NCBI GenBank assembly: GCA_963703955.1
Contig: CAVPGK010000011.1
Location: 32,001 to 96,000, forward strand
Length of the DNA: 64,000 nt
Direction of reading: 5' to 3'
Origin: Nitrospirota bacterium
GTDB lineage: Bacteria; Nitrospirota; Nitrospiria; Nitrospirales; Nitrospiraceae
Part shown: positions 1,680 through 33,560 of the stretch, one piece after another
How the letters are laid out: each line of letters opens with the position of its first letter
Position numbering within the stretch: the stretch's first letter is position 1
Position numbers and translations under genes: made by a program
The notes under the pieces: generated by a model
Databases searched by the model: none
What the model was told of the DNA's origin: nothing
What the model saw: the letters and a program-made list of their open reading frames with translations, nothing else

Positions 1680-4600
1680 CTATGAACAGCCGCTGGTCGA
1701 GCCGCAATTCATGCACTTCAGACAGTTTCCGTTGCGGACGAGCATGAACTCTCTGCACTGCTGACACGGATCGCCTTCGTAGCCTTTCTGTCTGGCGATC
1801 TGGATAGCGGTGGCGGTCAGTGTCAGCGTTTCCCGCTTCAACTCCAGCTTGTGCGACATATTGCTGTGGCCGTTCCCGTTGCCGCGCCGCGCCGGGAAGA
1901 CCTCCGTGCTGATGGACTGGGCGGCCAGCGTCTGCGGATCAGCCGGCTCGCTGTCAGCACATTCGGGGTCTTGGTCGTCTTTCTTCACCGTATCCATCCG
2001 CAGATCGTCCGGCACGACCTGCGCTAGATCGTGGCGGTCCAGGTAGGTGATGGCCAACTCGCGGAAGATGTAGTCGATGATCGAGGTGGACATCTTGATC
2101 TGCTCGTTGAGTCTGACGGGCCCGTTCGGCTCGAACCGCGTGAAGACAAACGCTTCGACGAACTCCTCCAACGGCACGCCGTGTTGCAATCCCAACGAAA
2201 TCGCGATGGCAAAGCAGTTCATTAAGCTGCGGAATGCCGCTCCTTCCTTGTGCATGTCCAGGAAGATTTCCCCCAGCGTTCCATCGCTGTACTCGCCTGT
2301 TCTGAGATAAATCTTGTGTCCGCCGACGATCGCCTTTTGCGTGTAGCCGTTCCGCCGCTCCGGCATGCGACGTCTCCGGCCGATATAGCGGACCATCACG
2401 CGCTCGGTGATCTTCTCGGCCATTTTCATGATGTCGCCGTTGGCCGCGGCCTCCGCTTCTCCGGATTCCGTGGAGGCGTTGAGCGGCTGGCTCAGTTTTG
2501 AGCCGTCCCGATACAGCGCGACCGCCTTGAGCATGCTGCGCCAGGCCAACAGGTACGAGGCCATCACCTCCTCCACCGTCGTGTCGGACGGCATGTTGAT
2601 CGTCTTGCTGATCGCGCCGCTGATAAAAGGCTGAGCCGCGGCCATCATACGGATATGCGCATCCACCGGGATGAACCGCTGGCCGCTCCGTCCGCACCGA
2701 TTGGCGCAGTCAAACACCGGCAAATGCTCCGCCTTGAGATGCGGAGCCCCTTCGACCGTCATGGTGCCGCAGCAGTAATCGTTCGCTGCCGCGATCTGCT
2801 CCTGGGTGAACCCTAACGCCTTGAGCATATTGAAATTCGGTTCGTTCAATTGGGCATCGGTAAGCCCGATCTTCTCGCGACAGAACGCCTCGCCTAAGGT
2901 CCACTTGTTGAAAGCGAACTGAATCTCGAAGGCCTGGGCTAATGCCGCCTCCAGACGGTCCAGGGCCGCGCCGTCAAAGCCTTTGGCTTGCAATGCTTCG
3001 TGATTGATGAACGGCGCGCCGTTCAGGGTCCATCGGCCCGTGCAATACGTCACGATGTCCTGGATCTGTGCCTCCGTGTATCCCAGCGTCATCAGCGCGG
3101 GCGGCAGGCTTTGGTTGATGATCTTAAAATAGCCGCCGCCGGCCAGCTTCTTGAATTTCACTAGCGCAAAATCCGGCTCGATGCCGGTGGTGTCGCAATC
3201 CATGACCAACCCGATTGTTCCGGTTGGAGCGATCACGGTGGTCTGGGCGTTTCGGAATCCGTACGCCGTCCCCAGCTCGAGGGCGCGGTCCCACGATCTC
3301 CGCGCCGCCAGCAGCAGATCCGGCGGACAATGTAGGGGCTGAATACCCTTGGGAGTGATGGTGAGTCCTTCGTATTCTTCTGGAGGCGCATTGTAGGCTG
3401 CTCTCCGATGGTTGCGGATGACCCGCAACATCGGCTCGCGATTCCGCGCATACCCCTCAAAGGGACCGAGCTCGGCGGCCATCTCGGCCGAGGCGGCATA
3501 GGATTCACCGGTCAGGATCGCCGTGACCGCGCCACACAAAGCCAAGGCCTGCGGCGAGTCATACGGAATACCCTGACGCAGCAAGACCGTTCCTAGGTTC
3601 GCATAGCCCAATCCCAGCGTCCGGAACACGAAACTCTTTTGCGCGATGGAGCGGCTCGGGAACGAGGCCATCAGCACGCTGATCTCGAGCACGATCGTCC
3701 AGAGTCGGACCGCATGGCGGAAGTCTTCGAGGTTGAATTGACCATTCGACGCGAAAAACTCACCGAGATTCAACGACGCCAGGTTGCAGGCGGTATCATC
3801 CAAGAACATGTACTCGCTGCAGTTGTGCACCACGAGTCCGGAGGCTACGAAATGATGTGTCGCCTCCTCGGTGAGATCAAATACGTCCGCATGGCCCGTA
3901 GGCTCGATGGACGCCACCTCATCAGTCAACTCATCCAGATACCACGCCACCTCCGCATTCAGATGCGCAAGAGCCGCGGCCTTTTGACTTTGCGGATGGA
4001 ACCCGATCTCCCGCTCGAAGATGAACCGGGACGACCCACTGATTCGAAGCGACCACCGGTTCTTCGGAGTCAAATCGCTCCCCCAGTCTACTCGGCTGTC
4101 GTCCAGCACGGACTTGATGCCGAAGGCCAGCAGCAGCAATTGCACCTGCTCCAGCAATTCCCGCGAACTGGAATCCAAGGCGATAGACCGGCACTGTTCC
4201 CCTTCTTTCACGACCGTTCCGTCCGCCGTGAACAGACCCCGAAGGACTCCCGCCAGCGCCGGACGATCCAGATCGTACGCCGCAGCGGTGAATCGTTTTC
4301 CCTCCGGGCCTTCGTCCGACACCGCGAACTGCCGGAACAGATCAACCACCGGCTTGGAGCCGATCGTAAGCCTGGCCCCCGTCACCCCATAGGTCACCTG
4401 AGCGCCGTCGTTGTGTGCCTCTGAGCCCACCGCCCTCAGCGCCGCTCTGTGTGTATTGACCGCTTCGGCGATGGAAGTCAGGACGAGCGTCTCGTTGGCG
4501 TGCATGGTCAGGACGACAAGGGCCCCGGTGCCACAGGTTACCGATCTATTGAGGCAACGATCCCCCATGGACACGCCGATGCCCAGCGCCAGATTCGCCG

Positions 4601-7424
4601 GTAACGTCCGGCGACCGAACCCTGGGCCCTGGAGGAACAGTCGATCATCCGGGGTGAGGTCCTTCACGGCAACGTCACCACGCCCGTCCGTCAGCACTCG
4701 GTGATCGCCGGTGATGCGGACTTGATAGCCCGACCGGGTCGTCAACCGGAAGGTCGGTTTGCGGCCGGTGGGGAAAATCCGGGTGACCACATGCGGCTGG
4801 CTGTCTGCGCCGATGATGCGAACCGACTTTCCGACGAGTTCGTCGATGCGCTGCCAGCCCTCGCTCGTCGCGACCAGGGTGTCGCCGGTCACACAGGGAT
4901 TGGACGCGTTGATGCGGCCGTCCTCCGGACAGGTGTGCCATTCATTGATCGTGGTGTCGTACTGGGTGCCGGGATCCGCGCAGATCCACGCCGCCCATGC
5001 GATCTTGTCCCACAGCTCGCGCGCCTTGATGACCTTCGTGACCTTGCCGTCCGTCCGGCGCGTGAGCGGCCAATCACCATCCTGTTCCAAGACCTCGAAA
5101 AACCCGTTCGGGATACGCAGGCTGTTGTTGGAGTTTTGACCCGCAACGGTTTGGTACGCCTTCCCGTCCCAGTTCGTGTCGTACTCGTGGAAGACAAAAT
5201 GTGTGAAACCTTCCTGCGCATAGGCAAACATCCTCTGGACATAGGCCTCCGGGACAGCCGCCTGGCGAGCCGCCCTAATCGCGTCCTTGAGCGCCGGATT
5301 ATTCTGAGGATTGGTCTCGATGCTGGTCCGACCATCCGCGCCGTCCGGCACATGACAGGCTTTCAAGACCGCATTGAGCCGCTGGGCACAGACCTTCGAG
5401 CCGGTGACCATGGCCGCCACCTTCTGCTCCTCGATCACCTTCCAATCGATAAATTCCTCTACATCGGGGTGGTCGAGGTCCAAGCACACCATCTTCGCGG
5501 CGCGCCTGGTCGTCCCGCCGGACTTGATCGCGCCGGCAGCCCGATCGCCGATCCGGAGGAAGGACATCAGGCCGGATGATTTCCCGCCACCCGAAAGGGA
5601 CTCGTTTTCACCGCGCAATTTAGAAAAGTTGGTCCCCGTTCCCGAGCCATACTTGAACAGGCGGGCTTCGCGGATCCATAGGTCCATGATCCCACCTTCA
5701 TTGACCAGATCATCCTCGATGGACTGGATGAAGCAGTTGTGAACCACGACGTTATTGGAAAGGTATTGGCCACTCTCGGTTTGAATATCGTAAACCGGCT
5801 GCACACCCATCGCTTCGACCCGTACGATCGCCTCTTCCCGTAGACCAGGTAGCAGTTTTCCGGCGAATTGATCGGAGCAGGCGACCTCAAGCTTTTGGCG
5901 CTTGTCCTCGGATACGAACCCGATCAGGTCACGGAAACGAGCGCGTGAATCCGCGTGGCCGATCGAAACAGAATACGGTGCGCTGCGATTCTCCCGGGTC
6001 ACTATTCCCCGCTGGATTCGGGCATAGATTCCAAGGTTCAGTAGGAGCGCTTGGACATCGTGTGCCCAAGGTTCTGAGGTCGTTGTCAGCACAACATCAG
6101 CGATACGCGAAGCGCGGGACCGCAGGCGTACTCTCCCATCGAGCTGAAAGAGCGCGGACAGGTATGCCGCTTGGGCCTGCACCCCTGCCGTGCGAATAGC
6201 ATCCGGCATTGAGAGATCAAGAGTACTTCGTAGAAGTTGATACCGGCCAGCAAACGGCCGAAGGTCTTCTCCATGGAGGCGTACCCGGCGAACATCAAGG
6301 TCCGGCTCCCTCGTCTCAAGGAAACGCACGTGGCACTGCATCCATGGAAAAACTCGTTGCACCCGTTCCACCACAAAATTGTATTCATCCTTGTCGATGG
6401 TGTTGAACTCAATGGTCAGACCGCCGTTCGTTCCTTGTTCATCACAAGTGGAAGGGTACCCCGGAGGCGCCCCTTCCACACCCACTTGTCCCACGAATCC
6501 GTCAGCCTGGAGCCACCCGACCAGAGCAGCTTCGTCAACAGTCTGTTGTTCCGACTTCGTTGTGACGGAGGTCCGCGTCGAAAGCTGAAGACGCATCCCG
6601 GACACAAGCTCATCCACACGACGCCAAACGCCGATTGAACGTCGCCTATCCAGAGCATGAACCATGTGATCGCCGGTCGCCTCAACGCACGCTCCGTTCT
6701 TGAGCCTGATGCGGAAGACCGGCTTTTTGCCGTTTGCCTTGACTGCAACGACGCGGGTGATCCCCGCGCCTTGCTCTCGACCGTCATAGACTGCAAGGCC
6801 GATGAGATTTTTCGTCACGATGTCCCCGATGAGCACTGGACCTTGAGGCGTGGCAATGCGCGCATGATACGGCTGGCATGCATGTGGTTGTGGGTGCTCA
6901 AAGGCGTTGGTTGCTTTGACCAGATCATGAGTTTGAGGATCGACATAGTGGTGTCCCTGTGAAGGACCGGAGAGGCCGTAAGCGTAGTGCAAGCCGGTGT
7001 TGAACCACTGCGGAGAATTCGGCGCAGCCATCTGGCGCGCCAGCATGTGACATAGCTCGTCGTAAAAGGCCGACGAGTCTTCTTCCGTATTGAAATAGCC
7101 GTGGCGCTTTCCCCAATCGGTCCAACAGCCGGCGAGCCGATGAAAGACCTGCCGGGCATCGCTTTCACCGGCCAGCACTGGCCGACCATCCGGTTCGGTC
7201 AGAGGATTCCCGTCGGGACCGACCTGAGGGACGCCCGCCTTCCGAAAATACTTCTGCGCCAGGATATCCACCGCAAGCTGCGACCACTGGCTCGGCGCGT
7301 CGATATTCTCCAGCTTAAAGACCGTCGAGCCGTCTGGATTCCTGATTTCAGAAGATCGCTTCGAGAACGTGATGCCCTCGTACGGGCTCTGTCCCTTCCG
7401 TGTGAATCTGCGTTCGATTCTCAC
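1680..7424 (-). CDS. nrdJ: vitamin B12-dependent class II ribonucleotide reductase with two inteins (mature protein ~1175 aa)
   Basis: Motifs [52 protein letters not shown]-terminal TSCPD-like domain and Zn ribbon (CQQC...[11 protein letters not shown]). Confidence 0.97.
3822..4895 (-). mobile_element. intein 2 in NrdJ (358 aa) with LAGLIDADG-like domain
   Basis: Starts [24 protein letters not shown]; ends LVVHN before the +1 Cys of NPCSE. Confidence 0.95.
5736..6878 (-). mobile_element. intein 1 in NrdJ (381 aa) with LAGLIDADG homing endonuclease
   Basis: Starts [13 protein letters not shown]; block [15 protein letters not shown] and [10 protein letters not shown] motifs; ends VVHN before the +1 Cys (CFIQS). 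Confidence 0.95.
6444..6489. repeat. short palindromic element inside the intein 1 coding sequence
   Basis: ACAAGTGG(6444-6451)/CCACTTGT(6482-6489) and GTGGAAGGG(6448-6456)/CCCTTCCAC(6471-6479) are perfect inverted repeats. Confidence 0.6.
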
Positions 7425-22916: not shown

Positions 22917-24160
22917 TGGGCTGCTGCCGGTGTGGTTGACACCCGCTTACGCTACTCCGGCCTTCATTTCGAACTCCATCGGGCTGAGATACCCCAGCGT
23001 GGAGTGCCGCCGCGTCGGATTGTAGAAACGTTCGATGTAATCGAACACGTCGGCCCTCGCCTGGGCTCGCGTGCGGTATGTCTTAGCTGCCGTGCGTTCG
23101 GTTTTTAGTGAGGAGAAGAAGCTCTCCATTGCCGCATTGTCCCAGGCGTTGCCGGCCCGGCTCATGCTACAGGTGACGCCGTGGTCGGCCAAGAGCCGCT
23201 GGAAAGGCTCACTCGTGTACTGGCTGCCTGGATCAGAGTGATGCAGCCCGGTCTCGGGCTTCCCCCGCCGCCAGAGCGCCATCACGAGCGCATCGGTGAC
23301 GAGTTGCGCGGTCATTGTCGCACTCATGGACCAGCCGACCACCCGTCGCGAAAAGAGATCGATGACGGCGGCGACGTAGAGCCACCCTTCGGCGGTCCAG
23401 AGATAGGTGAAGTCCGCAACCCATTTGCGGTTCGGCGGACGAGGCGTCAAAGGACCGGTTGAGCACATTCGGCGGCCAGGGCGTTCGTCGAGTGCACGGC
23501 CGTCTCGGCGGGCACCCGACGCCGTCTAGGACGTGCGCGCAAGGCCGTTGCCGCATCAGCCGCTCGATCCGATGAAGGCCGCAGGCGATTCCCTCCGCGA
23601 GCAGGTCGTGCCAGACACGTCGAGCCGCCGTAGGTGCGGTCGCTGGTGAGGAAGCTGGCCCGGACTCTGGCGCCGCAGCGCTCGTCGGGCGAGCGCGAGG
23701 ACTGGGCGGACGAGTCAGCCAGGCATAGAAGCCCCCCCGCGAGACACCGAGCGCCTCGCACAACCACGCCGGCCGGCCAGATCCCCCGGTGCTTCGCGAT
23801 GAAGGCGAACTTCACAGCGACTCCTTCGCGAAGTAGGCCGCGGCTTTTTTTCAAGATGTCCCGCTCGGCCTTGAGCTTGGGCACTTCGCGGCGGAGCCGC
23901 GCGATCTCAAGCTGATCGGGCTTCATCTGCCCCTGGCCAGGGAAGGCATGCTGCGGATCGGCTGCATCTCTGCACCCAGCGCCAACACCGTGCTATGCAC
24001 GCCCAAATCGCGCGCGGCTTGCGCCACGGTCACCCCGCGTTCCCTGATCAGCTTGACGGCCTCAACTTTGAACTCCCGCGTAAACTTCCGTCGCTCCATG
24101 GCTCACCTCCGGTTTCATCCATACACCTAACTCGGTGTCTTTGAAACCGGCAGCAGCCCA
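22917..24160 (-). mobile_element. IS3-family insertion sequence, 1244 bp, 3-bp target duplication AAG
   Basis: TG...CA ends; IRs TGGGCTGCTGCCGGT..GACACC at both ends; AAG flanks at 22914-22916 and 24161-24163. Confidence 0.95.
22947..24099 (-). CDS. IS3 transposase OrfA/OrfB (DDE), several frameshifts
   Basis: OrfA MERRKFTREFKVEAVKL; OrfB WVADFTY, IDLFSRRVVGW, HHSDPGSQY, DNAAMESFFSSLKTE. Confidence 0.92.
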
Positions 24161-24417: not shown

Positions 24418-24445
24418 ACTGAGACCGACCTGGCTATCCCATGTC

Positions 24446-24514
24446 CTAGACGATCAAATGCTGTTTCACCTGTTCCGCGCTCAATTCCGATGTCTTGCCC
24501 GTCGCCACCACCGC
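24446..24514 (-). repeat. diverged duplicate of the last 23 codons of urtE
   Basis: 58/69 nt identical to 24689-24757; encodes AVVATGKTSELSAEQVKQHLIV*. Confidence 0.9.
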
Positions 24515-24576
24515 TCTTCTCTTGTTCTTTTCCTCAGTTCTCCATCACTCACAACGGGCAAGGCACCTATTTTTGA

Positions 24577-24671
24577 CGGAGTGGCTGGGTCAGGCTCTAC
24601 TGCGCGCGTCCAACGAGGGCCTTCTGAGGCCGCGCGTTGCGCGAGCACGGAGTCTGACCCAGTCGCTCCGT
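24577..24671. repeat. REP-like hairpin element downstream of urtE
   Basis: ACGGAGTGGCTGGGTCAGGCTC / GAGTCTGACCCAGTCGCTCCGT form 22-nt inverted arms around a GC-rich core. Confidence 0.7.
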
Positions 24672-24688
24672 CTCCGACTATCCTGTCT

Positions 24689-25399
24689 TCAAACCACCAA
24701 ATGCTGCTTCACTTGCTCCGCGCTTAACTCCGATGTCTTGCCCGTTGCCACCACCGCCCCTTTGGCCATAATCACGTAGGTGTCCGCGAGTCGCGCGGCG
24801 AATTGAATGCCCTGTTCCACCAGCAGGATCGCGAACTGTCGCTGGGTCTTGAACCCGATGATGACTTCCTCGATGTGATCCACGATCGAGGGTTGGATGC
24901 CTTCCGTCGGCTCATCGAGCAACAATAGCTTTGGTTTCGCTAGCAGCGCCCGGGCGATCGCCAATTGCTGTTGCTCACCTCCGCTCAGCACCCCGCCCGG
25001 GCGTTCCAGCAGCACCGTCAACCTGGGAAAGAGTACAAACACTTCCTCAAAGGCCGCCTTTTCAGAAACGTGATTCCCCGACGGCGGTCTGGCCTCAAGG
25101 CCAAGCTGCAGATTCTCCCGCACGGTCAGATGGGGAAAAATTTCTCGCCCTTGCGGCACATACGCCAGGCCACGGCGGATTCGACGATCGGGCGTTTCGT
25201 GTGAGATATCGGCGCCGTTGAATTCGATTGTTCCTGTCCGTGATCGCAGGAGTCCCATGATGGTCTTAAGCAGGGTGGTCTTGCCGACACCGTTCCGACC
25301 CATGAGGCAGAGCACCTGCCCCGGCTCGACTTCAAACGTCACATTCCTGAGAATGTGGCTTTCGCCATAGTACACATTCAGGTTATCGAGCCGCAGCAT
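24689..25399 (-). CDS. urtE: urea ABC transporter ATPase
   Basis: GRNGVGKTT, YVPQGREIF, LSGGEQQQLAIARAL and LLDEPTEGIQPSI motifs. Confidence 0.95.
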   Translation of the reverse strand: MLRLDNLNVYYGESHILRNVTFEVEPGQVLCLMGRNGVGKTTLLKTIMGLLRSRTGTIEFNGADISHETPDRRIRRGLAYVPQGREIFPHLTVRENLQLGLEARPPSGNHVSEKAAFEEVFVLFPRLTVLLERPGGVLSGGEQQQLAIARALLAKPKLLLLDEPTEGIQPSIVDHIEEVIIGFKTQRQFAILLVEQGIQFAARLADTYVIMAKGAVVATGKTSELSAEQVKQHLVV

Positions 25400-26168
25400 C
25401 CGCCACCCTTTGCCGCCCCAGATAAATCTCGACCACGCGCGGATCGGACTGAATCGTGTCCACCGGCCCTTCACACAGGACCATGCCTTCGTGCAGCACC
25501 GTGATCGTACGGGCAATCTGTCGCACAAACTCCATGTCGTGTTCAATCACGATGATGGAATGGCGGTCAGCCAGCGACTGCAGCAGCAGGCCTGTCTGCT
25601 CGGTCTCGCGGTCGGTCATCCCGGCGACCGGTTCATCGACCAGGAGCAGGGCCGGATCCTGCAGCAACACCATCCCGATTTCCAGCCACTGTTTCTCCCC
25701 GTGAGAGAGCGCTCCGGCCCGTACCATCGCCTTGTCCGAAAGGCCGATTGTCTCCATCATCGAGCTGATCTGTTGCGCTTCCTCCGCGGTTGGCTTCGAC
25801 CGCAACGTGGCAAGCACCCCCTTGCTGGTCCGGCGGAGCGACAGGTCCAGATTCTCCCAGACAGTCAGGTTGGTGTAGACCGAAGGCGTCTGAAACTTCC
25901 GACCGATGCCCAGCGTCGCGATCTCATGCTCCGGGCGTCCGATCAGATCCGTATCCTTGCCGAAGATCACCCGACCGGCGACAGGCATCACCTTTCCGGA
26001 GATCACATCCAGCAGCGTGGTTTTACCGGCGCCGTTGGGTCCGATCACGACCCGGAGTTCACGATAATCGACGATGAAGTTCAGATTACGGAGGGCCTTG
26101 AACCCGTCAAAATCGACGGTGACGCCTTCCAGGTAGATTATTGAGCCGCGTTCCGTAGAACCGGTCAC
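25383..26168 (-). CDS. urtD: urea ABC transporter ATPase
   Basis: V.FDGFKAL, GPNGAGKTT, GIGRKFQTP and LSHGEKQWLEIGM motifs; GTG start overlaps the urtC stop. Confidence 0.95.
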   Translation of the reverse strand: MTGSTERGSIIYLEGVTVDFDGFKALRNLNFIVDYRELRVVIGPNGAGKTTLLDVISGKVMPVAGRVIFGKDTDLIGRPEHEIATLGIGRKFQTPSVYTNLTVWENLDLSLRRTSKGVLATLRSKPTAEEAQQISSMMETIGLSDKAMVRAGALSHGEKQWLEIGMVLLQDPALLLVDEPVAGMTDRETEQTGLLLQSLADRHSIIVIEHDMEFVRQIARTITVLHEGMVLCEGPVDTIQSDPRVVEIYLGRQRVADAAAR

Positions 26169-27301
26169 GAGGTTGCCACCTTCTTGGAAAGACCCGGCCA
26201 ACGGAACTGCCGACCGCCGCTGAGCTTTCGAACGAGGCCAACAAACCCCTCGGGAAAGAGGAGCACCACCGCCACAAAGAGTCCTCCGAGGAAGAAGGGC
26301 CACAGGTCGGGGAAATGATTGGTCAACACGCTTCGCGCCCAATTGACTCCAATGGCCCCGAACACCGCGCCGACAAGGGTCCCGCGGCCGCCGACCGCGA
26401 CCCAGATGACCATTTCCAGTGATGGGAGCACGCCGATCTGACTCGGGGTGATGATGCCGACCTGAGGCACATAGAGCGCGCCGGCCAAACCGGCCAACGC
26501 GGCTGAGACGACAAAGACGAAGAGCTTGTAATTGGAAGGAGAGTACCCTGAAAAGAGCACCCGCTGCTCGCTGTCCCGGATGGCCACCAGAACCTTTCCG
26601 GCGCGCGACCGAGTAATCCAGCGGCACACGAAATAAGCCATTCCCAGGCAGAGGACGGTCACGACGTAGAGTGTACGTTGAGTGCCCGAGTCGCTCAGGC
26701 GGAAGCCGAGTATGGTTTTGAAATCGGTCAGCCCGTTCGTGCCGCCTAGGTTGGTCTCATTTCGATTGAAGACCAGCCAGGCGGACAGCGCCAATGCTTG
26801 AGTGATAATGGCGAAGTAGACCCCTTTGATCCGACTGCGGAAGGCGAGGAATCCAAAGATCGTCGCAAAGAGCGTGGGGATCAGGATCGCCGCGGCAAGA
26901 GAGAACCCAAAGCTATAAAAGGGTTTCCAAAAAAACGGGAGCTTCTTGACTTGATTCCATACCATGAAATCCGGCAGGGCGCTTCCATACACACTTTCGG
27001 TTCCGATCGACAACATGAGATGCATGCCGATTGCATAGGCGCCCAACCCGAAAAAAACTCCGTGGCCGAGGCTCAGGATCCCCGTGTAGCCCCAGATCAG
27101 ATCGAGTCCCAGCGCCAAGATGGCAAAGGCGAGAAACTTCCCGAATCGGTTCAACGTAAAATCGGAAACATGGAGCCAGGAGTCCGGCGAGGGCATGACG
27201 TTAAGGAGCGGCATGCCCATGAGAAGAACCAAGCCGACCACCCAGAAGGTAAGACTTTCGCCTCGCTCACCGCCATGCCCGTTATCTCGCCAGACGTTCA
27301 T
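26165..27301 (-). CDS. urtC: urea ABC transporter permease
   Basis: DLIWGYTGILSLGHG, RSRIKGVYFAIITQAL, GGTNGLTDFK and VAVGGRGTL motifs. Confidence 0.95.
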   Translation of the reverse strand: MNVWRDNGHGGERGESLTFWVVGLVLLMGMPLLNVMPSPDSWLHVSDFTLNRFGKFLAFAILALGLDLIWGYTGILSLGHGVFFGLGAYAIGMHLMLSIGTESVYGSALPDFMVWNQVKKLPFFWKPFYSFGFSLAAAILIPTLFATIFGFLAFRSRIKGVYFAIITQALALSAWLVFNRNETNLGGTNGLTDFKTILGFRLSDSGTQRTLYVVTVLCLGMAYFVCRWITRSRAGKVLVAIRDSEQRVLFSGYSPSNYKLFVFVVSAALAGLAGALYVPQVGIITPSQIGVLPSLEMVIWVAVGGRGTLVGAVFGAIGVNWARSVLTNHFPDLWPFFLGGLFVAVVLLFPEGFVGLVRKLSGGRQFRWPGLSKKVATS

Positions 27302-27379
27302 TCTTAAATACTTACGCTCTGATGTTGAGGTTCAGGCTGAGGTTGAGCTTGAGCAAGATTGTGCTCAGGCAGAGCCTTA

Positions 27380-28918
27380 CTACCCCTCGGCATGACGCCC
27401 TTTGATGGCAAAGAGTCCGGATGGACGGCGTTGGAGGAAAAGGATCACAAGGATCAAGATCAGCACCTTCCCATAGACGGCGCCGAAGCTCGGCTCCAGA
27501 AGCTTGTTCAACCCACCGATACCTAACGACGCCACGATAGTGCCCGCCAGCTTGCCGACGCCGCCGGTGACGACGACCATGAAGGAATCCACAATGTAGT
27601 TCTGGCCAAGACCGGGTTCGACATTCCCGACCAGCGTGAGGGCGCAACCGGCCAACCCCGCCAACCCTGAACCGAAGGCAAAGGTATATGCGTCCACTCG
27701 ACGGGTTGCAATACCCAGGCAGGCGCTCATATCTCGGTTCTGCATGACCGCCCGCACCCGGAGCCCGACACGCGATCGAAAGAGAAGTAAATAGATTCCG
27801 ACGACGCAAATCACCGCCAGCCCGATGATGAAAAGCCGGTTATACGGGAGCTGCACCCCAACCATGACCTGCGCCCCCCCGCTTAACCAACTGGGCGCGG
27901 CAACCGAGGTGAGGTCTCCGAACCAGACCCGGGCCGCCTGGATCAGAATCAAGCTCACTCCCCAGGTGGCAAGCATCGTTTCTAAGGGGCGGCCGTAAAG
28001 AAACCGAATGATCGTCGCTTCGAGCAGAAGTCCGAACAGACCCGCCGCCAGAAATGAGCAGGGCATGGCCGCAAGGAAGTAGTAATCGAAGAGGCTGGGC
28101 TGAAAATGCGCCTTAAATACCTCCTGCGTCAGGAAGGTGGCATAGGCGCCCACCATCATCAGTTCGCCATGTGCCATGTTGATTACGCCCATTAGACCGA
28201 AAACGATGGCCAAGCCCAAGGCCATAAGCAAGAGAATGGAGCTGAGACTGATTCCCCGGAACACGGTCTCGATCGCGCCGGTCCAGGTTCCCCAGACTTC
28301 GATCCGCTCAATCGCTTCGCGCGCTGCCTGGGTGACAAGCTGTGCGGACTGATCCTCTCCATGATCTTTGGTTGCTGCCAACTCTTTGAGCGCGGGGATT
28401 GCATTTTGACTGTGAAGTTCCCCGAGTTTGGCGGCCGCCGCCGCCTTCATGGCGCGGTCGTCACTCGACAGGTTAATGAGGTTGATGGATTCTTCGATCG
28501 TATAGCGCGCCCAGCGATCCGACTCATGCTGAAGGGCCGCTTCCAGCCACGGGACGGCGACCGGCTTGCCTAACGTACCGAGATCCGTAGCGGCCGAACG
28601 GCGTTGATCGGCATCCGCGCCGGTGAGCTTGACCTTGTTCCTGAGAAGGTCGATGACCGGCTTCATCAGGACGCGGACGCTTCGGTCCGCATTGGCACGA
28701 AACTCTTCGAGTCTCGGCAGCAGATTGGGATCATCAGCGACGATCAAGCTGTTGATCGCCGCTTCTTGAATTGCGGGATCATCACTCGACAGATTCGCCA
28801 GGGCTCGCTCTACCGAGGACGGCGGAGGGGACGCAATAGCCCCCTCCGCCGCGATAACATTGCTCGCGCCCACGAGCGTCGAAGCGAAGACCACTGAGGC
28901 CAATAAGACATGTCTCAT
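27380..28918 (-). CDS. urtB: urea ABC transporter permease with N-terminal HEAT-like domain
   Basis: GLAIVFGLMGVINMAHGE, LYGRPLETMLATWG and IVDSFMVVVTGGVG motifs. Confidence 0.95.
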   Translation of the reverse strand: MRHVLLASVVFASTLVGASNVIAAEGAIASPPPSSVERALANLSSDDPAIQEAAINSLIVADDPNLLPRLEEFRANADRSVRVLMKPVIDLLRNKVKLTGADADQRRSAATDLGTLGKPVAVPWLEAALQHESDRWARYTIEESINLINLSSDDRAMKAAAAAKLGELHSQNAIPALKELAATKDHGEDQSAQLVTQAAREAIERIEVWGTWTGAIETVFRGISLSSILLLMALGLAIVFGLMGVINMAHGELMMVGAYATFLTQEVFKAHFQPSLFDYYFLAAMPCSFLAAGLFGLLLEATIIRFLYGRPLETMLATWGVSLILIQAARVWFGDLTSVAAPSWLSGGAQVMVGVQLPYNRLFIIGLAVICVVGIYLLLFRSRVGLRVRAVMQNRDMSACLGIATRRVDAYTFAFGSGLAGLAGCALTLVGNVEPGLGQNYIVDSFMVVVTGGVGKLAGTIVASLGIGGLNKLLEPSFGAVYGKVLILILVILFLQRRPSGLFAIKGRHAEG

Positions 28919-28986
28919 TGGGATTGGCTGATGCTTCTATATCCCCGAGGGTGCGCGAGCACAGGGGGCAGTGCGGTCGTCCCCGC

Positions 28987-30345
28987 CTACGCCTTCTTCT
29001 GATACGTTCCCTGGTGCTTAATCCAATCGCACCCTTTGTCTGGGTTCGTGTACTCACTCCATGGTTCAGGCTTTACCAATCCTTTCGATCGCGACACCAC
29101 TTTGAATTGGCCGTCTTTGAGAATTTCGCCGATCAGCACCGGCTTATGGGTGTGGTGATTGGCCTCATCCATCTTGATCTTTCCGCCCGGCGCGAGAAAT
29201 TCCTGTCCGTATACCGCCTTCCGAACCGCATCCACATCGGTCTTGCCGGCTTTCTCCACAGCCTGCTTCCACACGTAGACGCCAAAATACGCCGCTTCAA
29301 TCGGATCGTCTGTCACGCGCTTTTCGCCGTCCGGCAGGTTACTTTTCTTGCAATAGGCTTTGAAGTTGGCGACGAACTGTTTGTTCTGCGGCGTATCGAC
29401 GCTTTGGTAATAGTTCCAGGCGGCCAGATGTCCGACCAGCGCGGTCGTATCCATGCCCCGCAATTCGTCCTCAGCCACGCTGAAGGCCATGATGGGCGCG
29501 TCTTCGGCGCGCAACCCTTGGTTGGCGAACTCCTTGTAGAACGGCACATTGCTGTCGCCGTTAATCGTGCTGATCACACACGCGCCGCCGCCGGCTGCGA
29601 ATTTCTTGATCTTGCCGACGATTGTTTGATAATCCTGATGATGGAACGGCGTGTACTCCTCCATGATGTTGGCCTCCGGCACTTTCTTCGCCAGCAGCAT
29701 CGCTCGCAGAATCTTGTTCGTCGTGCCTGGGATAGACATAGTCGGTCCCCAACAGATAGAACTTCTTGTGGTCCGCCGCCCTCCTTGCTCATGAGATACT
29801 CCACCGCCGGGACGGCCTGCTGGTTTACCGCCGCGCCGGTATAGAAGACATTGCGTGAGCATTCCTCGCCTTCGTACTGGACGGGGTAGAACAGCAGGCC
29901 GTTGTTCTTCTCGAAGACCGGGAGCACAGACTTCCGGCTGACCGAGGTCCAGCAGCCGAAGACGACCGCCACCTTGTCCTGAAGCAACAGCTGCTTGGCC
30001 TTTTCGGCAAACAGGTCCCAATTCGACGCGGGATCCACTACCACCGGTTGGATCTTGCGGCCCAGTAGCGCCGCCTTTTGCGTTGATCTCTTCGACCGCC
30101 ATCAGCACGACATCGCGCAAGGACACCTCGCTGATCGCCATGGTGCCGCTCAAGGAATGCAAGACGCCGATCTTGATCGGGTCCTTGTCGGCCGCATACG
30201 AAAGTGCCCAATTGCCGAGGTTGCCTAGGAGAGCCGCCACACCGAACCCGGCGGCGGCCTTCGTGCTGTTTGTCAAAAACTGGCGCCGCGATTGATTGCT
30301 GTCGTTTTCTTCCTTCGGGATACTGTTTGATCCAATCGGTTTCAT
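28987..30345 (-). CDS. urtA: urea ABC transporter substrate-binding protein (internal compensating frameshifts)
   Basis: [58 protein letters not shown]; Tat-like SRRQFL. Confidence 0.95.
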
Positions 30346-30373
30346 TGTCTTGTCCCTTTCTTGTCTACAGATT

Positions 30374-30501
30374 ACAAGATGCTCAAGACGCACCTACCAA
30401 CGAGGCCGCAGGCGGAGTCAAAACCGGAGGCGTACCTCGGGGGTACGTTGAGGATTTTGCCGAGCCGAGAACGAAGTTGGAGGCCGTTTTTAGCATCTTG
30501 T
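30374..30501. repeat. MITE-like element between the porin gene and urtA
   Basis: Terminal inverted repeats ACAAGATGCT / AGCATCTTGT; internal CGTACC..GGTACG hairpin; no coding role evident. Confidence 0.65.
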
Positions 30502-32027
30502 CAAGAAGTTGTACCAGAAGGAGAGCATATAGTTATCTCCAGCAAACTTCTGCCCGTTCGACCATTCAGTCCATACATAGTTCCATTCGAGTCCGGTGTA
30601 GAAGTCCGCCCACACATGATATATTCCCGACAGATAGGTTCGTTGGTTAATCAAATATTGTTGGTCCGCCGGGATGCCTCCTGCGGCAGCGCCTGCCAAA
30701 TCCGAATTGAGAGGATTGTCGAAACCATAGCCGGCGAGGAACGTAAAGTCTGATGAATGGGCGTAGCTGAACTGCGCGCCGGCCAACCATGGTGCGAACC
30801 GGCAGCCCGGTGATCAGGTTCAGGCTTTGCGCATAGCGAAAGAACTCCACATCGAGCGCCTGGCCATAAGCGATCTCTCCGGAGAACTTCACCTTCTTCG
30901 TAATCGGAACAACCAGCTCCCCGCCGACGACATACGAATTGATGTCGTTGCCTGACGGAAGGAGCGGAACGCCGGTCAGAGATGTTGCAGCCGGTGAAAC
31001 CGGAGCAGAACGGTAGTACCGGTAGGCCGCACTGACAGCTATCGAAAACCCTTGCAATGATCCCGTTCCTCCCGTAGGCTAGCCGAGCGCCGGCGTACGG
31101 CATCTTGACCGGATCATTGAACGCGTTCTCCGAGCAAGTAAAGTTGGAAGGTTGACCACTGCACGTACCGCTGAAGGCGCCGGCGCCATGGCCGGTAAAC
31201 GGTTGCCGCTGCGTGTAGGGATTGATGGCCGACAGACCGCGCTCAAACCGAAATGCGGTCAGCAGTCCCTTCAATATTGTCCGTGAAACTATGGCGAACG
31301 GTGACCTCGTGGAAGGCGCTGCCACAGATTTCCACCGTACCCCATGATTGAGAAGTCGATGAGGTCCGGGTGCAGCGCCATGACCGGCGTCCAGTCTTGG
31401 CCGACGGTCAGACTCGTACGTTTGTAGGCGTATGAGGCGTTTGCCAGACGAAGACGTGGCGGGAGGTTCCGGCGTTGTCGTCTGTCCGTAGAAGTCGATT
31501 TCGACGACGCCTTTCAAAGTATGCACGTCGTCCGTTCGAGCCGCGCGAATACCAAGGACGCTGTATCGAGGGTTAAGGGTGCTTGAAGAATTGCTGCTCT
31601 GACCGGCCGCTGTGGCGTATCCATTGAACTGTCCTGGATCGAGGGGGTTCATGTTTCGGTTGCTGTAAATGGCATCTAGCTCGACCCGTCCATACGGCGT
31701 GATGCTGCCCTTGGGGCTCTCCGCCGGAGTCGGGACCTGCTGCTGCCGGGTCACCCGGCCAGCTCCTTCCGCCTCGCTCGCCTTAGGGGTGACGACACCC
31801 GTCTCGCCCACCTCCTCACCGACCTGTTTCATCTGCTCAGCTTTTTCCTTAGGCGTGATCTCACCGAATTCCTCCTTCTGCTGTCGTATAACCCGACCGC
31901 CTCCTTCCTCCTGGCCCGCCGGTTCCTGTGCGAGAACCGACCGGATGGGGTACGTCGAATTCAGCCCCAGAACTACTCCAAGGACAAGCAATACGAGGCT
32001 CTCGCTCTTTTTCCTACATGTCCTCAT
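30490..32027 (-). CDS. DcaP-like outer-membrane porin leading the urt operon (several frameshifts)
   Basis: Signal peptide; TPYGRVELDAIY and GVVEIDFYG; beta-strand pattern ending ..SFWYNF; GGAGG RBS. Confidence 0.7.
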
Positions 32028-32081
32028 CCGATGCCTCCGTTGTGTCAGACGAAGTGTTGTGTGCGGCTGGACCTCAGGGCG

Positions 32082-32125
32082 AAAAAAAACGCCCTCCCGG
32101 TCCATTCCCTGAACCAAAAGGACGT
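32082..32125 (-). terminator. intrinsic terminator (attenuator) in the leader of porin-urtABCDE
   Basis: ACGTCCTTTTGGTTC-loop-GGACCGGGAGGGCGT stem running into a T8 tract. Confidence 0.8.
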
Positions 32126-32183
32126 CATTGTCCCAATGTTTAAGCCGTGCCCCGAAGAGAAGGACTCCGTTGTCCTCCTCTCC
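32119..32183 (-). ncRNA. ANTAR-type dual-hairpin cis-regulatory RNA
   Basis: GGAC[AACGGA]GUCC and GGAC[AAUGAC]GUCC hexaloops (A1, G4, C-G closing pair); the second overlaps the terminator 5' arm. Confidence 0.8.
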
Positions 32184-32202
32184 CCCATTGCACAGCTGCG
32201 CG

Positions 32203-32232
32203 CTTATAGTCTGATCTCTTTCCTAATGTCAA
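32203..32232 (-). promoter_or_regulatory. sigma70-type promoter of the urea uptake operon
   Basis: TTGACA-18 nt-TATAAG, ~20 nt upstream of hairpin 1. Confidence 0.7.
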
Positions 32233-32473
32233 GGGTTACCACATCGTACCGTCTGGATAATTGCTTATGGAAGCAGTCGTCGTGGTGGGTTCAGAACAGA
32301 TTCTGATGGTACTAGTGGACTGTAACAACAAAATCGAGAGTAAACGCGATGCCGGGGATTAGCGTACTTCGCTTACGCGTGTGGCTTCTATTTGTATATG
32401 CAGAATCGAACACTACCGAATATTCGTTACAGTCCACTAGTGGTCCCAATCATGCCGAACTTGGAAGTCTACC

Positions 32474-33560
32474 TTGCACGCCGTCAATATCGTTTTCACT
32501 CCCGGTTTCTTCTCTTGTTGTGCTAGACTAGCGCCGCATCTGGTGAGGTCGTCCAGCGTTGTTCTCGAAACGATCAATCATTGCAATCGCACTGAGGGGT
32601 TGCTCTCAGCATGTACGTCCTCCCCTCGCCCCGAAGTCATGATTCATGAGAGTCCGAGGGGGGCCGTGTATCTTGAGCGAATCGCCGACCGGGCTGTGCA
32701 AGCAACCCACCCCATCTCGCTGGATGAGGGTCTGATCACTCGAATCTTTCGCGGTGTCCTGGTGGTGGCTGACAGGATCACACTTCAATCGCTGTTCGGC
32801 AGCGAAGCGAAGACGGCCCGAGCTTTCTCCGATGAGGATGCCGCTTTCGTCGCTCCTCAGGTTGCAAAAGCGTTTTTGCAGGCTAGGCCGGACCAGCAGG
32901 TCGGCTTCCGTCTTCTTTATGCGGTCAGTCCTATTTCGTATCCGGCCGGTGGCGGGGCCGCCGTGGGCTCAACGGCCCCGTTCCCAACCAGTCCGCAGAC
33001 ACAGACTACAGTGGGTGCTTTGTACGTCAATGGCTTGTCGGTTCACCTGACACTCAAGGAGTTTCAGTACGGACCGACCAGCGCCGACACCATCGGCGGT
33101 CCCAATCGGTACTATCCAGACCGGACGGGATTTGATTCGCGCGAGATTGCTTTCGTCCCACGGACAGCGGAACGCCCCGACATCTACAAATCCACAGGGG
33201 CTATTTGGCCAGCCACAGTCGAAAACCGTTGTGATCGATTATCAACTCCTGGCGAAACTTCCGGTCGGACTAACACCCGGCTTTGCCCCGGTTTCAATGA
33301 GTGAAACGTCCGCGCAGCTTCAGGCAAAAGAAGAGGCTGCCGCGTTGGTCGCGAGCCCGCCGGCCAAATCGGCCGAGAAATCGCCGTCGGATTCCGAAGA
33401 GGTTCAGTTGCTGAAGGATCTCGTGATCAAGAAGGATATGGAGCTGGAGGCCTTGAAGAAGGAGCTCCGCAACACGCAGCGTCAGTTATCGGAACGCGAA
33501 GCGGAGCTTCAAAATCAGACGAAGCGGAAGGGCAAGCCCACGCCGAAGGCACAGGAATAG
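32474..33560 (+). CDS. hypothetical lipoprotein-like protein with C-terminal coiled coil (frameshift near 33197; start uncertain)
   Basis: LLSAC lipobox-like motif; two ORFs join by removing one G from a G4 run. Confidence 0.6.

Follow-up and report, generated by a model that had tools for sequence, protein, structure and literature searches.

Genomic context of the leader

The DNA analysed here, a stretch of 64,000 nucleotides referred to below as the window, comes from a Nitrospirota bacterium that is the sole member of its genus and whose genome is 82% complete. The amoA gene was not found in this genome, and near-identical sequence is present in soil metagenomes. On the minus strand of the window, a 5' leader (32082..32232) is followed, in this order, by a porin-like gene, the urtABCDE genes of a urea ABC transporter, a copy of an IS3-family element, a BBP2 porin gene and urease genes. 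The urt genes (24689..30393, minus strand), recognised in a first-pass annotation, are confirmed by the NCBIfam models TIGR03407-03411, with UrtA scoring below the curated cut-off. The same annotation called the first gene of the operon (30505..32027, minus strand) a porin. This gene has no Pfam or NCBIfam hit; an orthologue that scores 0.97-0.98 to porin/DcaP-like Atlas clusters provides a lead that it encodes an outer-membrane porin.

The porin gene is read in three frames here, with frame changes against an orthologue. Frame changes against orthologues are also seen in the divergent gene on the other side of the leader (32474..33536, plus strand), a conserved lipoprotein-like gene, which is context only and which in many relatives sits between the ANTAR gene and the leader. 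Since contigs of 2-3 near-identical soil runs differ from both the porin (30505-32027) and the lipoprotein gene (32474-33536) by 1-nt indels, errors of this kind in the assembly are the likely explanation.

Other irregularities were recorded in this assembly. The genes metH and ureG/ureD look split or fused, and the 3' end of urtE appears twice, about 240 nt apart (24440-24800, minus strand); the two copies are separated, and also followed, by sequence that resembles repeats. The minus strand at 1680-7424 encodes a 1914-aa class II ribonucleotide reductase that shows matches to inteins. The IS3-family element (22940-24110, minus strand) has frame breaks, lies between urtE and the BBP2 porin and urease genes, and may uncouple ure from the leader. 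A stretch of 125 nt upstream of the leader promoter (32314-32440) has no counterpart in contigs from two related soil runs and may be an insertion in this strain.

Architecture of the leader

The leader begins with a predicted sigma70-like promoter, TTGACA-N18-TATAAG (32203..32232), in which the -35 hexamer TTGACA (32232-32227) is followed after an 18-nt spacer by the -10-like hexamer TATAAG (32208-32203). As proposed in the first-pass annotation, this element is present on the minus strand, where all the features described in this section are found. Because TATAAG lacks the final T, the -10 is not called by a consensus promoter scan.

Downstream of the promoter, the RNA is predicted to fold into two hairpins with hexanucleotide loops. 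The first, P1 (32143..32197), consists of a predicted basal 8-bp helix (32197-32190 with 32150-32143), an internal loop, and a 12-bp stem (hairpin 1, 32183-32154) that carries the hexaloop L1, AACGGA (32171-32166). The basal helix is predicted to lengthen P1 to 20 pairs, and the linker to the second hairpin, given earlier as about 20 nt, is about 19 nt without this helix but only 8 nt if it forms. CsrA-type sites carry an ANGGA motif; such a site in L1 was considered and rejected, being out of register with the loop and having a GGA that is not conserved. The second hairpin, P2 (32119..32134), is a 5-bp antiterminator hairpin with the loop L2, AAUGAC (32129-32124).

P2 overlaps an intrinsic terminator (32082..32126), identified both by folding and by a terminator call. 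Its 15-bp core, with 5 G-U pairs, joins 32124-32110 to 32104-32090, and the stem has 17 pairs when the flanking pairs are included. The 5' arm of the terminator is made up of position 6 of L2 and the 3' strand of P2, and the stem is followed by a U8 tract (32089-32082), from which 55 nt lead to the ATG of the porin gene at 32027. The porin Shine-Dalgarno sequence, GGAGG (32038-32034), and this ATG together occupy 32025..32038. Thus, the tandem hairpins with C-G-closed hexaloops that carry A at position 1 and G at position 4 (A1 and G4), as well as the overlap of hairpin 2 with a terminator, are present as first described.

The 126-nt leader has a fold energy of -61.5 kcal/mol (z -6.1), and none of 200 shuffled sequences folds as well; the terminator is predicted at -24.9 kcal/mol, against -7 kcal/mol for P2 alone. 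When the 3.3-Mb assembly was scanned for pairs of such hairpins spaced 16-60 nt and with a U tract behind them, this site was the only one returned. With Rfam covariance models, nothing matched over the leader up to an E of 5, the single hit (E 4.8) being a chance one.

Conservation and covariation

Orthologous leaders were collected by way of the porin, whose sequence matched 92 of the 251 family genomes; the best 30 loci, the window's own included, were taken. P2 and the terminator are present in 28 of the 29 orthologous loci, the remaining locus having no upstream DNA, and a promoter-like TTGAC-N16-18-TA(T/C)A stands at the matching position in 27 of the 29 loci with hairpin 2. The alignment comprises 26 leaders, four having been omitted as truncated or missed by the extraction pattern. 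Conservation of the hexaloops, on which the earlier reading depended, is complete: A1, G4 and the C-G closing pair are kept in both L1 and L2 in 26/26 leaders. In L2, A1, A2, G4 and C6 are invariant in all 26 and P2 is 100% paired, while L1 is closed in the MFE fold of 25.

Alignment for covariation, which the first-pass annotation had recommended, revealed two-sided changes in 3 of the 5 top pairs of P1; P2 and the urt-type terminator have no two-sided changes among orthologues. For P1 and P2 together, the covariation score is 0.177, compared with 0.095 when shuffled, and is reached by 0 of 500 shuffles. The urt-type terminator is paired in 364/364 cells of the alignment, through invariant or one-sided pairs and with conserved G-U pairs. 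The paralogous leaders provide stronger structural evidence for the terminator than the orthologues do: their distal terminator stems are unrelated in sequence, and the pairing is kept.

Outside its loop, P1 is variable in sequence; across leaders it is an irregular rod of 5-23 bp (20 bp in this leader). The linker between the stems measures 0-27 nt across the 26 leaders, with a median of about 10, and the loops are 37-49 nt apart.

Wider sets of elements show a similar picture. In 117 of 119 elements, the terminator fold takes up the 3' strand of P2 by pairing; this set includes loci picked by a pattern that fixes the loop letters. Among 80 distinct hairpin-plus-terminator elements collected without fixing these letters, G4 and C6 are each found in 80/80 and A1 in 73/80. 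In several genomes, leaders adjoining the ANTAR gene (L037, L038, L041, L047, L049, L053 and L063) have G, not A, at position 1 of the P2 loop. A 23-nt exact pattern covering P2 and the terminator occurs at 87 places in GTDB; 78 of the 80 matches listed (87 in all) are records of Nitrospira, Nitrospiraceae, Nitrospirales or Nitrospirota, and the remaining two of those listed are without terminator and P1. Near-identical soil strains differ from this leader, among the changes listed, at loop position 3, at a terminator pair that is A-U instead of G-U, at a single basal position of P1b and in one G within a run of G; throughout those listed, A1 and G4 of both loops and the terminator pairing are intact.

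Folding predictions also point to a 'lock' segment just past the U tract (32069..32081, minus strand), complementary to the 3' arm of the terminator. The duplex between lock and terminator arm is predicted to be stronger than in shuffled sequences (p<=0.05) in 27 of 29 loci, and the 3' arm is predicted to pair downstream in 28/29 loci with P2 held, as compared with 2/29 with P2 free. In many relatives, the lock segment is predicted to be able to pair with the Shine-Dalgarno sequence too. The idea that holding P2 exposes the Shine-Dalgarno sequence at equilibrium was rejected, with greater access predicted in just 4/29 loci; such exposure is retained solely as a kinetic possibility.

The candidate regulator

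The first-pass annotation had postulated a trans-encoded ANTAR regulator and proposed a search for proteins with the ANTAR domain (PF03861). In this assembly, the domain was not found with Pfam, by tblastn or in a six-frame search with a custom profile, all of which gave generic GAF hits only. Among relatives, on the other hand, PF03861 was detected in 198 of the 250 family genomes, nearly always in a single copy; none of 14 control genomes scored over the ANTAR cut-off, the family search serving as the positive control.

The candidate regulator is a protein of about 421 aa with the domain order GAF-GAF-ANTAR and 75-86% identity across 20 members; its ANTAR domain scores 72 bits, against a Pfam cut-off of 27.3. 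In an alignment of the 20 members, the G4-reading residues of EutV (R142, K149, E160 and Y164, the last being F here) correspond to positions that are invariant in 20/20, and so do K143, M172 and R175; EutV R168, N173 and R177 are not kept. Orthologues occur in 52 of 201 genomes of the phylum, among them members of other families within the order and class and, at about 45% identity, of one distant family. With the leader model, no leader was found in f13, a distant family (2/2 genomes), or in 1/2 genomes of family f2, although the protein is encoded.

The ANTAR gene is often found 1.5 kb upstream of the porin match in the family. The usual gene order is pilMNOPQ-(aroC)-aroB-ANTAR, followed by either lipoprotein-leader-porin-urt or leader-nadE. 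In the genome under study, contig C26 ends inside pilQ. Searches of the assembly with tblastn gave no hit for aroB, aroC, glnD, glnA, amt or the cyanate/nitrate-binding protein, and a weak partial hit only for nadE; the glutamine synthetase and Amt families, detected in 14/14 control genomes, are absent from it. A metagenome search with the PilP of this genome returned 64 loci, none of the same species; 31 of them extend past aroB, and 30 of these 31 have ANTAR next. These include the loci most closely related to the pil genes of C26 (PilM 73-75%), which read pilQ-aroB-ANTAR-leader-nadE-glnD. A similar search with the PilQ N-terminus gave no match. Because C26 breaks in pilQ, the aroB/glnA/amt block is missing and relatives share this gene order, the regulator gene of this genome most likely lies in an unassembled stretch past the end of C26, rather than having been lost.

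The likely regulon and its possible signal

Further copies of the dual-hairpin motif, which the first-pass annotation had suggested looking for, are found both in this genome and in relatives. Here, a covariance model detects a second ANTAR-type leader (C15:173974-174085, plus strand; E 2e-4) before a 140-aa small lipoprotein-like ORF that Pfam does not recognise and for which Atlas gives only weak leads. The U tract of this second leader is broken, and a Shine-Dalgarno-like AGGAGG lies within its 3' arm. All 17 loci homologous to it have P2 and a terminator with an intact U tract, and several of them adjoin the porin or ANTAR locus. The C15 leader may be decaying or may have moved to control at the level of translation, or else its state may stem from an error in the assembly. 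No leader was found upstream of the nitrite-transporter-nirA genes of this genome.

In relatives, the same type of leader is found before nadE, before porin-amt-glnB-glnD-glnA, and before a cyanate/nitrate ABC operon, further amt genes, nitrite-transporter-nirA and the small lipoprotein gene. Since the leaders stand before nadE and before amt/gln, cyanate/nitrate and nitrite genes, they likely mark a nitrogen-acquisition regulon. Tandem hexaloop-terminator units lie between glnA and the cyanate/nitrate ABC genes at three loci (L077:687/814, L078:5532/5641 and L068:12266/12414), and the first unit may double as the glnA terminator.

A nitrogen signal had been proposed for the switch, and the nitrogen-assimilation regulon agrees with it; intracellular nitrogen status appears a more likely signal than urea itself. 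The most conserved part of the GAF-GAF-ANTAR protein is its first GAF domain, GAF1. Its best PDB matches are 3e0y (the top match; function not stated) and then two PtsP GAF domains (3ci6, E 2e-26; 3trc), and its best NCBIfam matches are PtsP (PRK11061, E 1e-40) and NifA. Superposition of the AlphaFold model on 3ci6 gives 2.4 A and a target TM of 0.83; a search with the fold of the whole protein is topped by tandem-GAF cyclic-nucleotide receptors. The PtsP GAF domain is described as binding glutamine and 2-oxoglutarate (PMC13104625). In Nitrospira moscoviensis grown on nitrite alone, transcription of urt and ure is reported to be moderate although no urea is present, and that of amt and cyanase to be strong (PMC6606698). 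This pattern, from data without an ammonium comparison, fits control by nitrogen status over induction by urea. As a counterpoint, urt and ure are only moderate on nitrite alone in these data, while neighbouring nitrogen genes are high (PMC6606698).

Co-occurrence and loss

The covariance model detects leaders in 133 of 150 relatives (G001-G150). When the results of the ANTAR search and the leader model were crossed by hand, 126 of these genomes had both, 15 neither, 7 a leader only and 2 ANTAR only. The 7 leader-only genomes are drafts, five being 72-89% complete and two 98-99% complete in 110-260 contigs.

The distribution is related to that of amoA in one genus, g10, in which 13/13 amoA-bearing genomes are without both ANTAR and leader, and 5 amoA-less genomes have both. 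Among the amoA-bearing genomes of this genus, urtB is retained in 10 of 13; the hairpins and the porin are kept in 0/8 fetched urt loci, with a promoter-like element visible by eye in 6 of these 8. At 3/3 fetched loci, aroB is followed directly by nadE and glnA. ANTAR, amt and glnD are all missing from this aroB-nadE-glnA locus in L208, L209 and L210. In a second genus, g18, the amoA-bearing genomes have kept ANTAR in 7/7 cases, and leaders were found in 5 of the 6 searched with the model.

Because comammox clades A and B are reported to fall in separate mixed genera (PMC12342949) and clade A to carry an Rh-type transporter in place of AmtB (bioRxiv 10.1101/138586), we infer that the amoA-bearing g10 lineage is comammox clade A. 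The joint loss of leader and ANTAR in g10 is probably one evolutionary event, so Fisher p-values overstate the association between the two.

A model of the switch and its alternatives

The anatomy of the leader, the conservation of both loops, the candidate regulator in the family and the nitrogen-assimilation regulon all support the reading first proposed. Very probably, the conserved 5' leader works as an ANTAR antitermination switch, which would be opened by the GAF-GAF-ANTAR protein of the family when nitrogen is short. By default, the terminator (-25 kcal/mol) would displace P2 (-7), and transcripts would end at the U8 tract, about 115 nt from the predicted start. At low glutamine or high 2-oxoglutarate, the PtsP-like GAF1 would, by homology, activate the ANTAR dimer, which would bind L1 and then L2 and hold P2 closed. 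With P2 closed, the terminator could form no more than its upper half, at too great a distance from the U tract, and the freed terminator 3' arm is predicted to pair just past this tract, fixing the read-through fold.

A broader proposal can be made tentatively. Nitrogen acquisition in Nitrospirales would be governed by a single one-component RNA antiterminator, in which a PtsP-like GAF reads glutamine and 2-oxoglutarate directly. The leader would be an elaborated form, with a long P1 and a lock helix that in many relatives would also act as an anti-Shine-Dalgarno and so couple translation with antitermination. When ammonia and urea came to serve as sources of energy, comammox clade A would have dismantled the regulator, the leaders, the porin and the AmtB/GlnD of the locus, and urt would have escaped this control.

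The same switch could answer to a different signal, namely urea, cyanate, nitrite, a cyclic nucleotide, or PII binding to the GAF, which is possible if somewhat doubtful. GAF folds bind many ligands, and homology does not fix which one; cyclic-nucleotide receptors lead the whole-protein fold search, and glnB-glnD belong to the regulon. The GAF of Azotobacter vinelandii NifA binds 2-oxoglutarate, and PII controls other NifA proteins. Nevertheless, GAF1 is closest by sequence to the GAFs of PtsP and NifA, a general nitrogen status fits better with one regulator for ammonium, urea, cyanate/nitrate and nitrite genes, and urt and ure are transcribed without urea in N. moscoviensis (PMC6606698). It is improbable that ANTAR was truly lost in this organism and that the leader is the orphan, leaky terminator of a decaying operon. 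An assembly without ANTAR, a second leader on C15 without its U tract, the frame breaks of the porin and the IS3 copy behind urtE would agree with decay, but glutamine synthetase, aroB and aroC are all part of the missing block, and C26 breaks where this block starts. Moreover, near-identical soil strains keep A1/G4 and the terminator pairing among the leader differences listed, their contigs are without several of the porin indels, and lineages that are genuinely without ANTAR have lost the leaders too.

Readings without an ANTAR protein fare worse. The GGAC-N6-GTCC palindromes resemble DNA operators for a dimeric transcription factor, with the terminator incidental, in that both are DNA dyads just downstream of the promoter and P2 is nearly invariant in sequence. 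Yet their 6-nt centre is asymmetric and has one orientation to the terminator (G4 in 80/80), the pairing of P1 is kept through different sequences, G-U pairs are conserved, and the elements are lost together with an RNA-binding domain, which makes operators very unlikely. It is just as hard to credit that the leader acts as a riboswitch without any protein, or as an attenuator that some other RNA-binding protein reads. The variability of P1 outside its loop is unlike an aptamer, Rfam offers nothing beyond the chance hit, and the leaders without a detected ANTAR gene in 7/150 genomes, which together with the long P1 and the extra downstream helix would favour such a device, come from drafts.

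Regulation of urea and ammonium acquisition in nitrite-oxidising Nitrospira is little studied, and Nitrospira ureolysis can feed ammonia oxidisers. Read as an ANTAR antitermination switch, the leader points to a candidate regulator, with candidate binding sites, target genes and a likely ligand. If this is true, ureolysis would be ammonium-repressed in canonical Nitrospira and in the second comammox genus, and not in the lineage without the system.

Comparison with known ANTAR systems

This type of switch is already known; its sensor here is uncharacterised, and its lineage-specific loss is informative. ANTAR proteins have been reviewed (PMC12591593), and ANTAR control at the level of translation is described in mycobacteria (bioRxiv 10.1101/660928). 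According to PMC3369931, no GAF-ANTAR protein was characterised as of 2012, and 'Nitrospira' is absent from the 7 supplementary files of that paper that were searched. A literature search, judged by title and the start of the abstract and with subscription papers sparsely covered, found no paper on ANTAR or antitermination in Nitrospira.

In Pseudomonas, AmiR is held by AmiC. AmiR, which acts on the amidase genes, and NasR, which acts on Klebsiella nasF, are reported examples of ANTAR control over the uptake or use of alternative nitrogen sources (PMC3369931, PMC12591593). NasR is a one-component protein like the Nitrospira candidate, but it has a NIT domain for nitrate; NasR and AmiR each control mainly one operon, unlike what is proposed for the Nitrospira candidate. 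The same class of target is seen in Desulfotomaculum carboxydivorans, where an ANTAR RNA is predicted before a urea transporter and urease (PMC3369931, supplementary file 6); this is a Firmicute with a REC-ANTAR protein in its genome, and the case is a prediction only (PMC3369931). For the sensor, the closest named homologue of GAF1 is the GAF of PtsP (EI-Ntr; PDB 3ci6, 3trc), reported to sense glutamine and 2-oxoglutarate (PMC13104625). The PtsP GAF controls a phosphotransfer enzyme and not an RNA-binding domain, and the likeness of the Nitrospira GAF is one of sequence and fold only.

GnfK/GnfR of Geobacter sulfurreducens is likewise a case of ANTAR antitermination of nitrogen genes (PMC2995071). 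There, antitermination is reported as shown for nifH, and control of glnK-amtB is proposed, with terminators before glnK and amtB and a published site, CAGGCAANGGCGCC (PMC2995071). This site is very similar to the consensus of the Nitrospira loops. The Geobacter system is two-component, with REC-ANTAR, sigma54 promoters and GnfL/GnfM, whereas that of Nitrospira has a sigma70-like promoter, a urea operon as target and putative sensing by GAF.

The closest parallels in RNA structure are with EutV and eut of Enterococcus faecalis, where two A1/G4 hexaloops with a conserved closing pair are described and P2 overlaps a terminator (PMC3369931, PMC8934654); the G4-reading residues of EutV are kept in the Nitrospira candidate. 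EutV belongs to the REC-ANTAR response regulators and receives its phosphate from EutW, while the Nitrospira candidate is a one-component GAF-GAF-ANTAR protein. The eut leaders have short stems, a linker of 5-12 nt and 24 nt from loop to loop, as against a long P1 and loops 37-49 nt apart in Nitrospira. In eutP, a 14-nt linker or a 20-nt extension is reported to abolish antitermination (PMC3369931, PMC8934654), so that the spacing in Nitrospira counts against the ANTAR reading. On the structural model presented here, the wider loop spacing in Nitrospira is absorbed by the long P1. Judged from its sequence, the leader shares with the known ANTAR dual-hexaloop sites every feature that sequence can test, arguably with the exception of the spacing.
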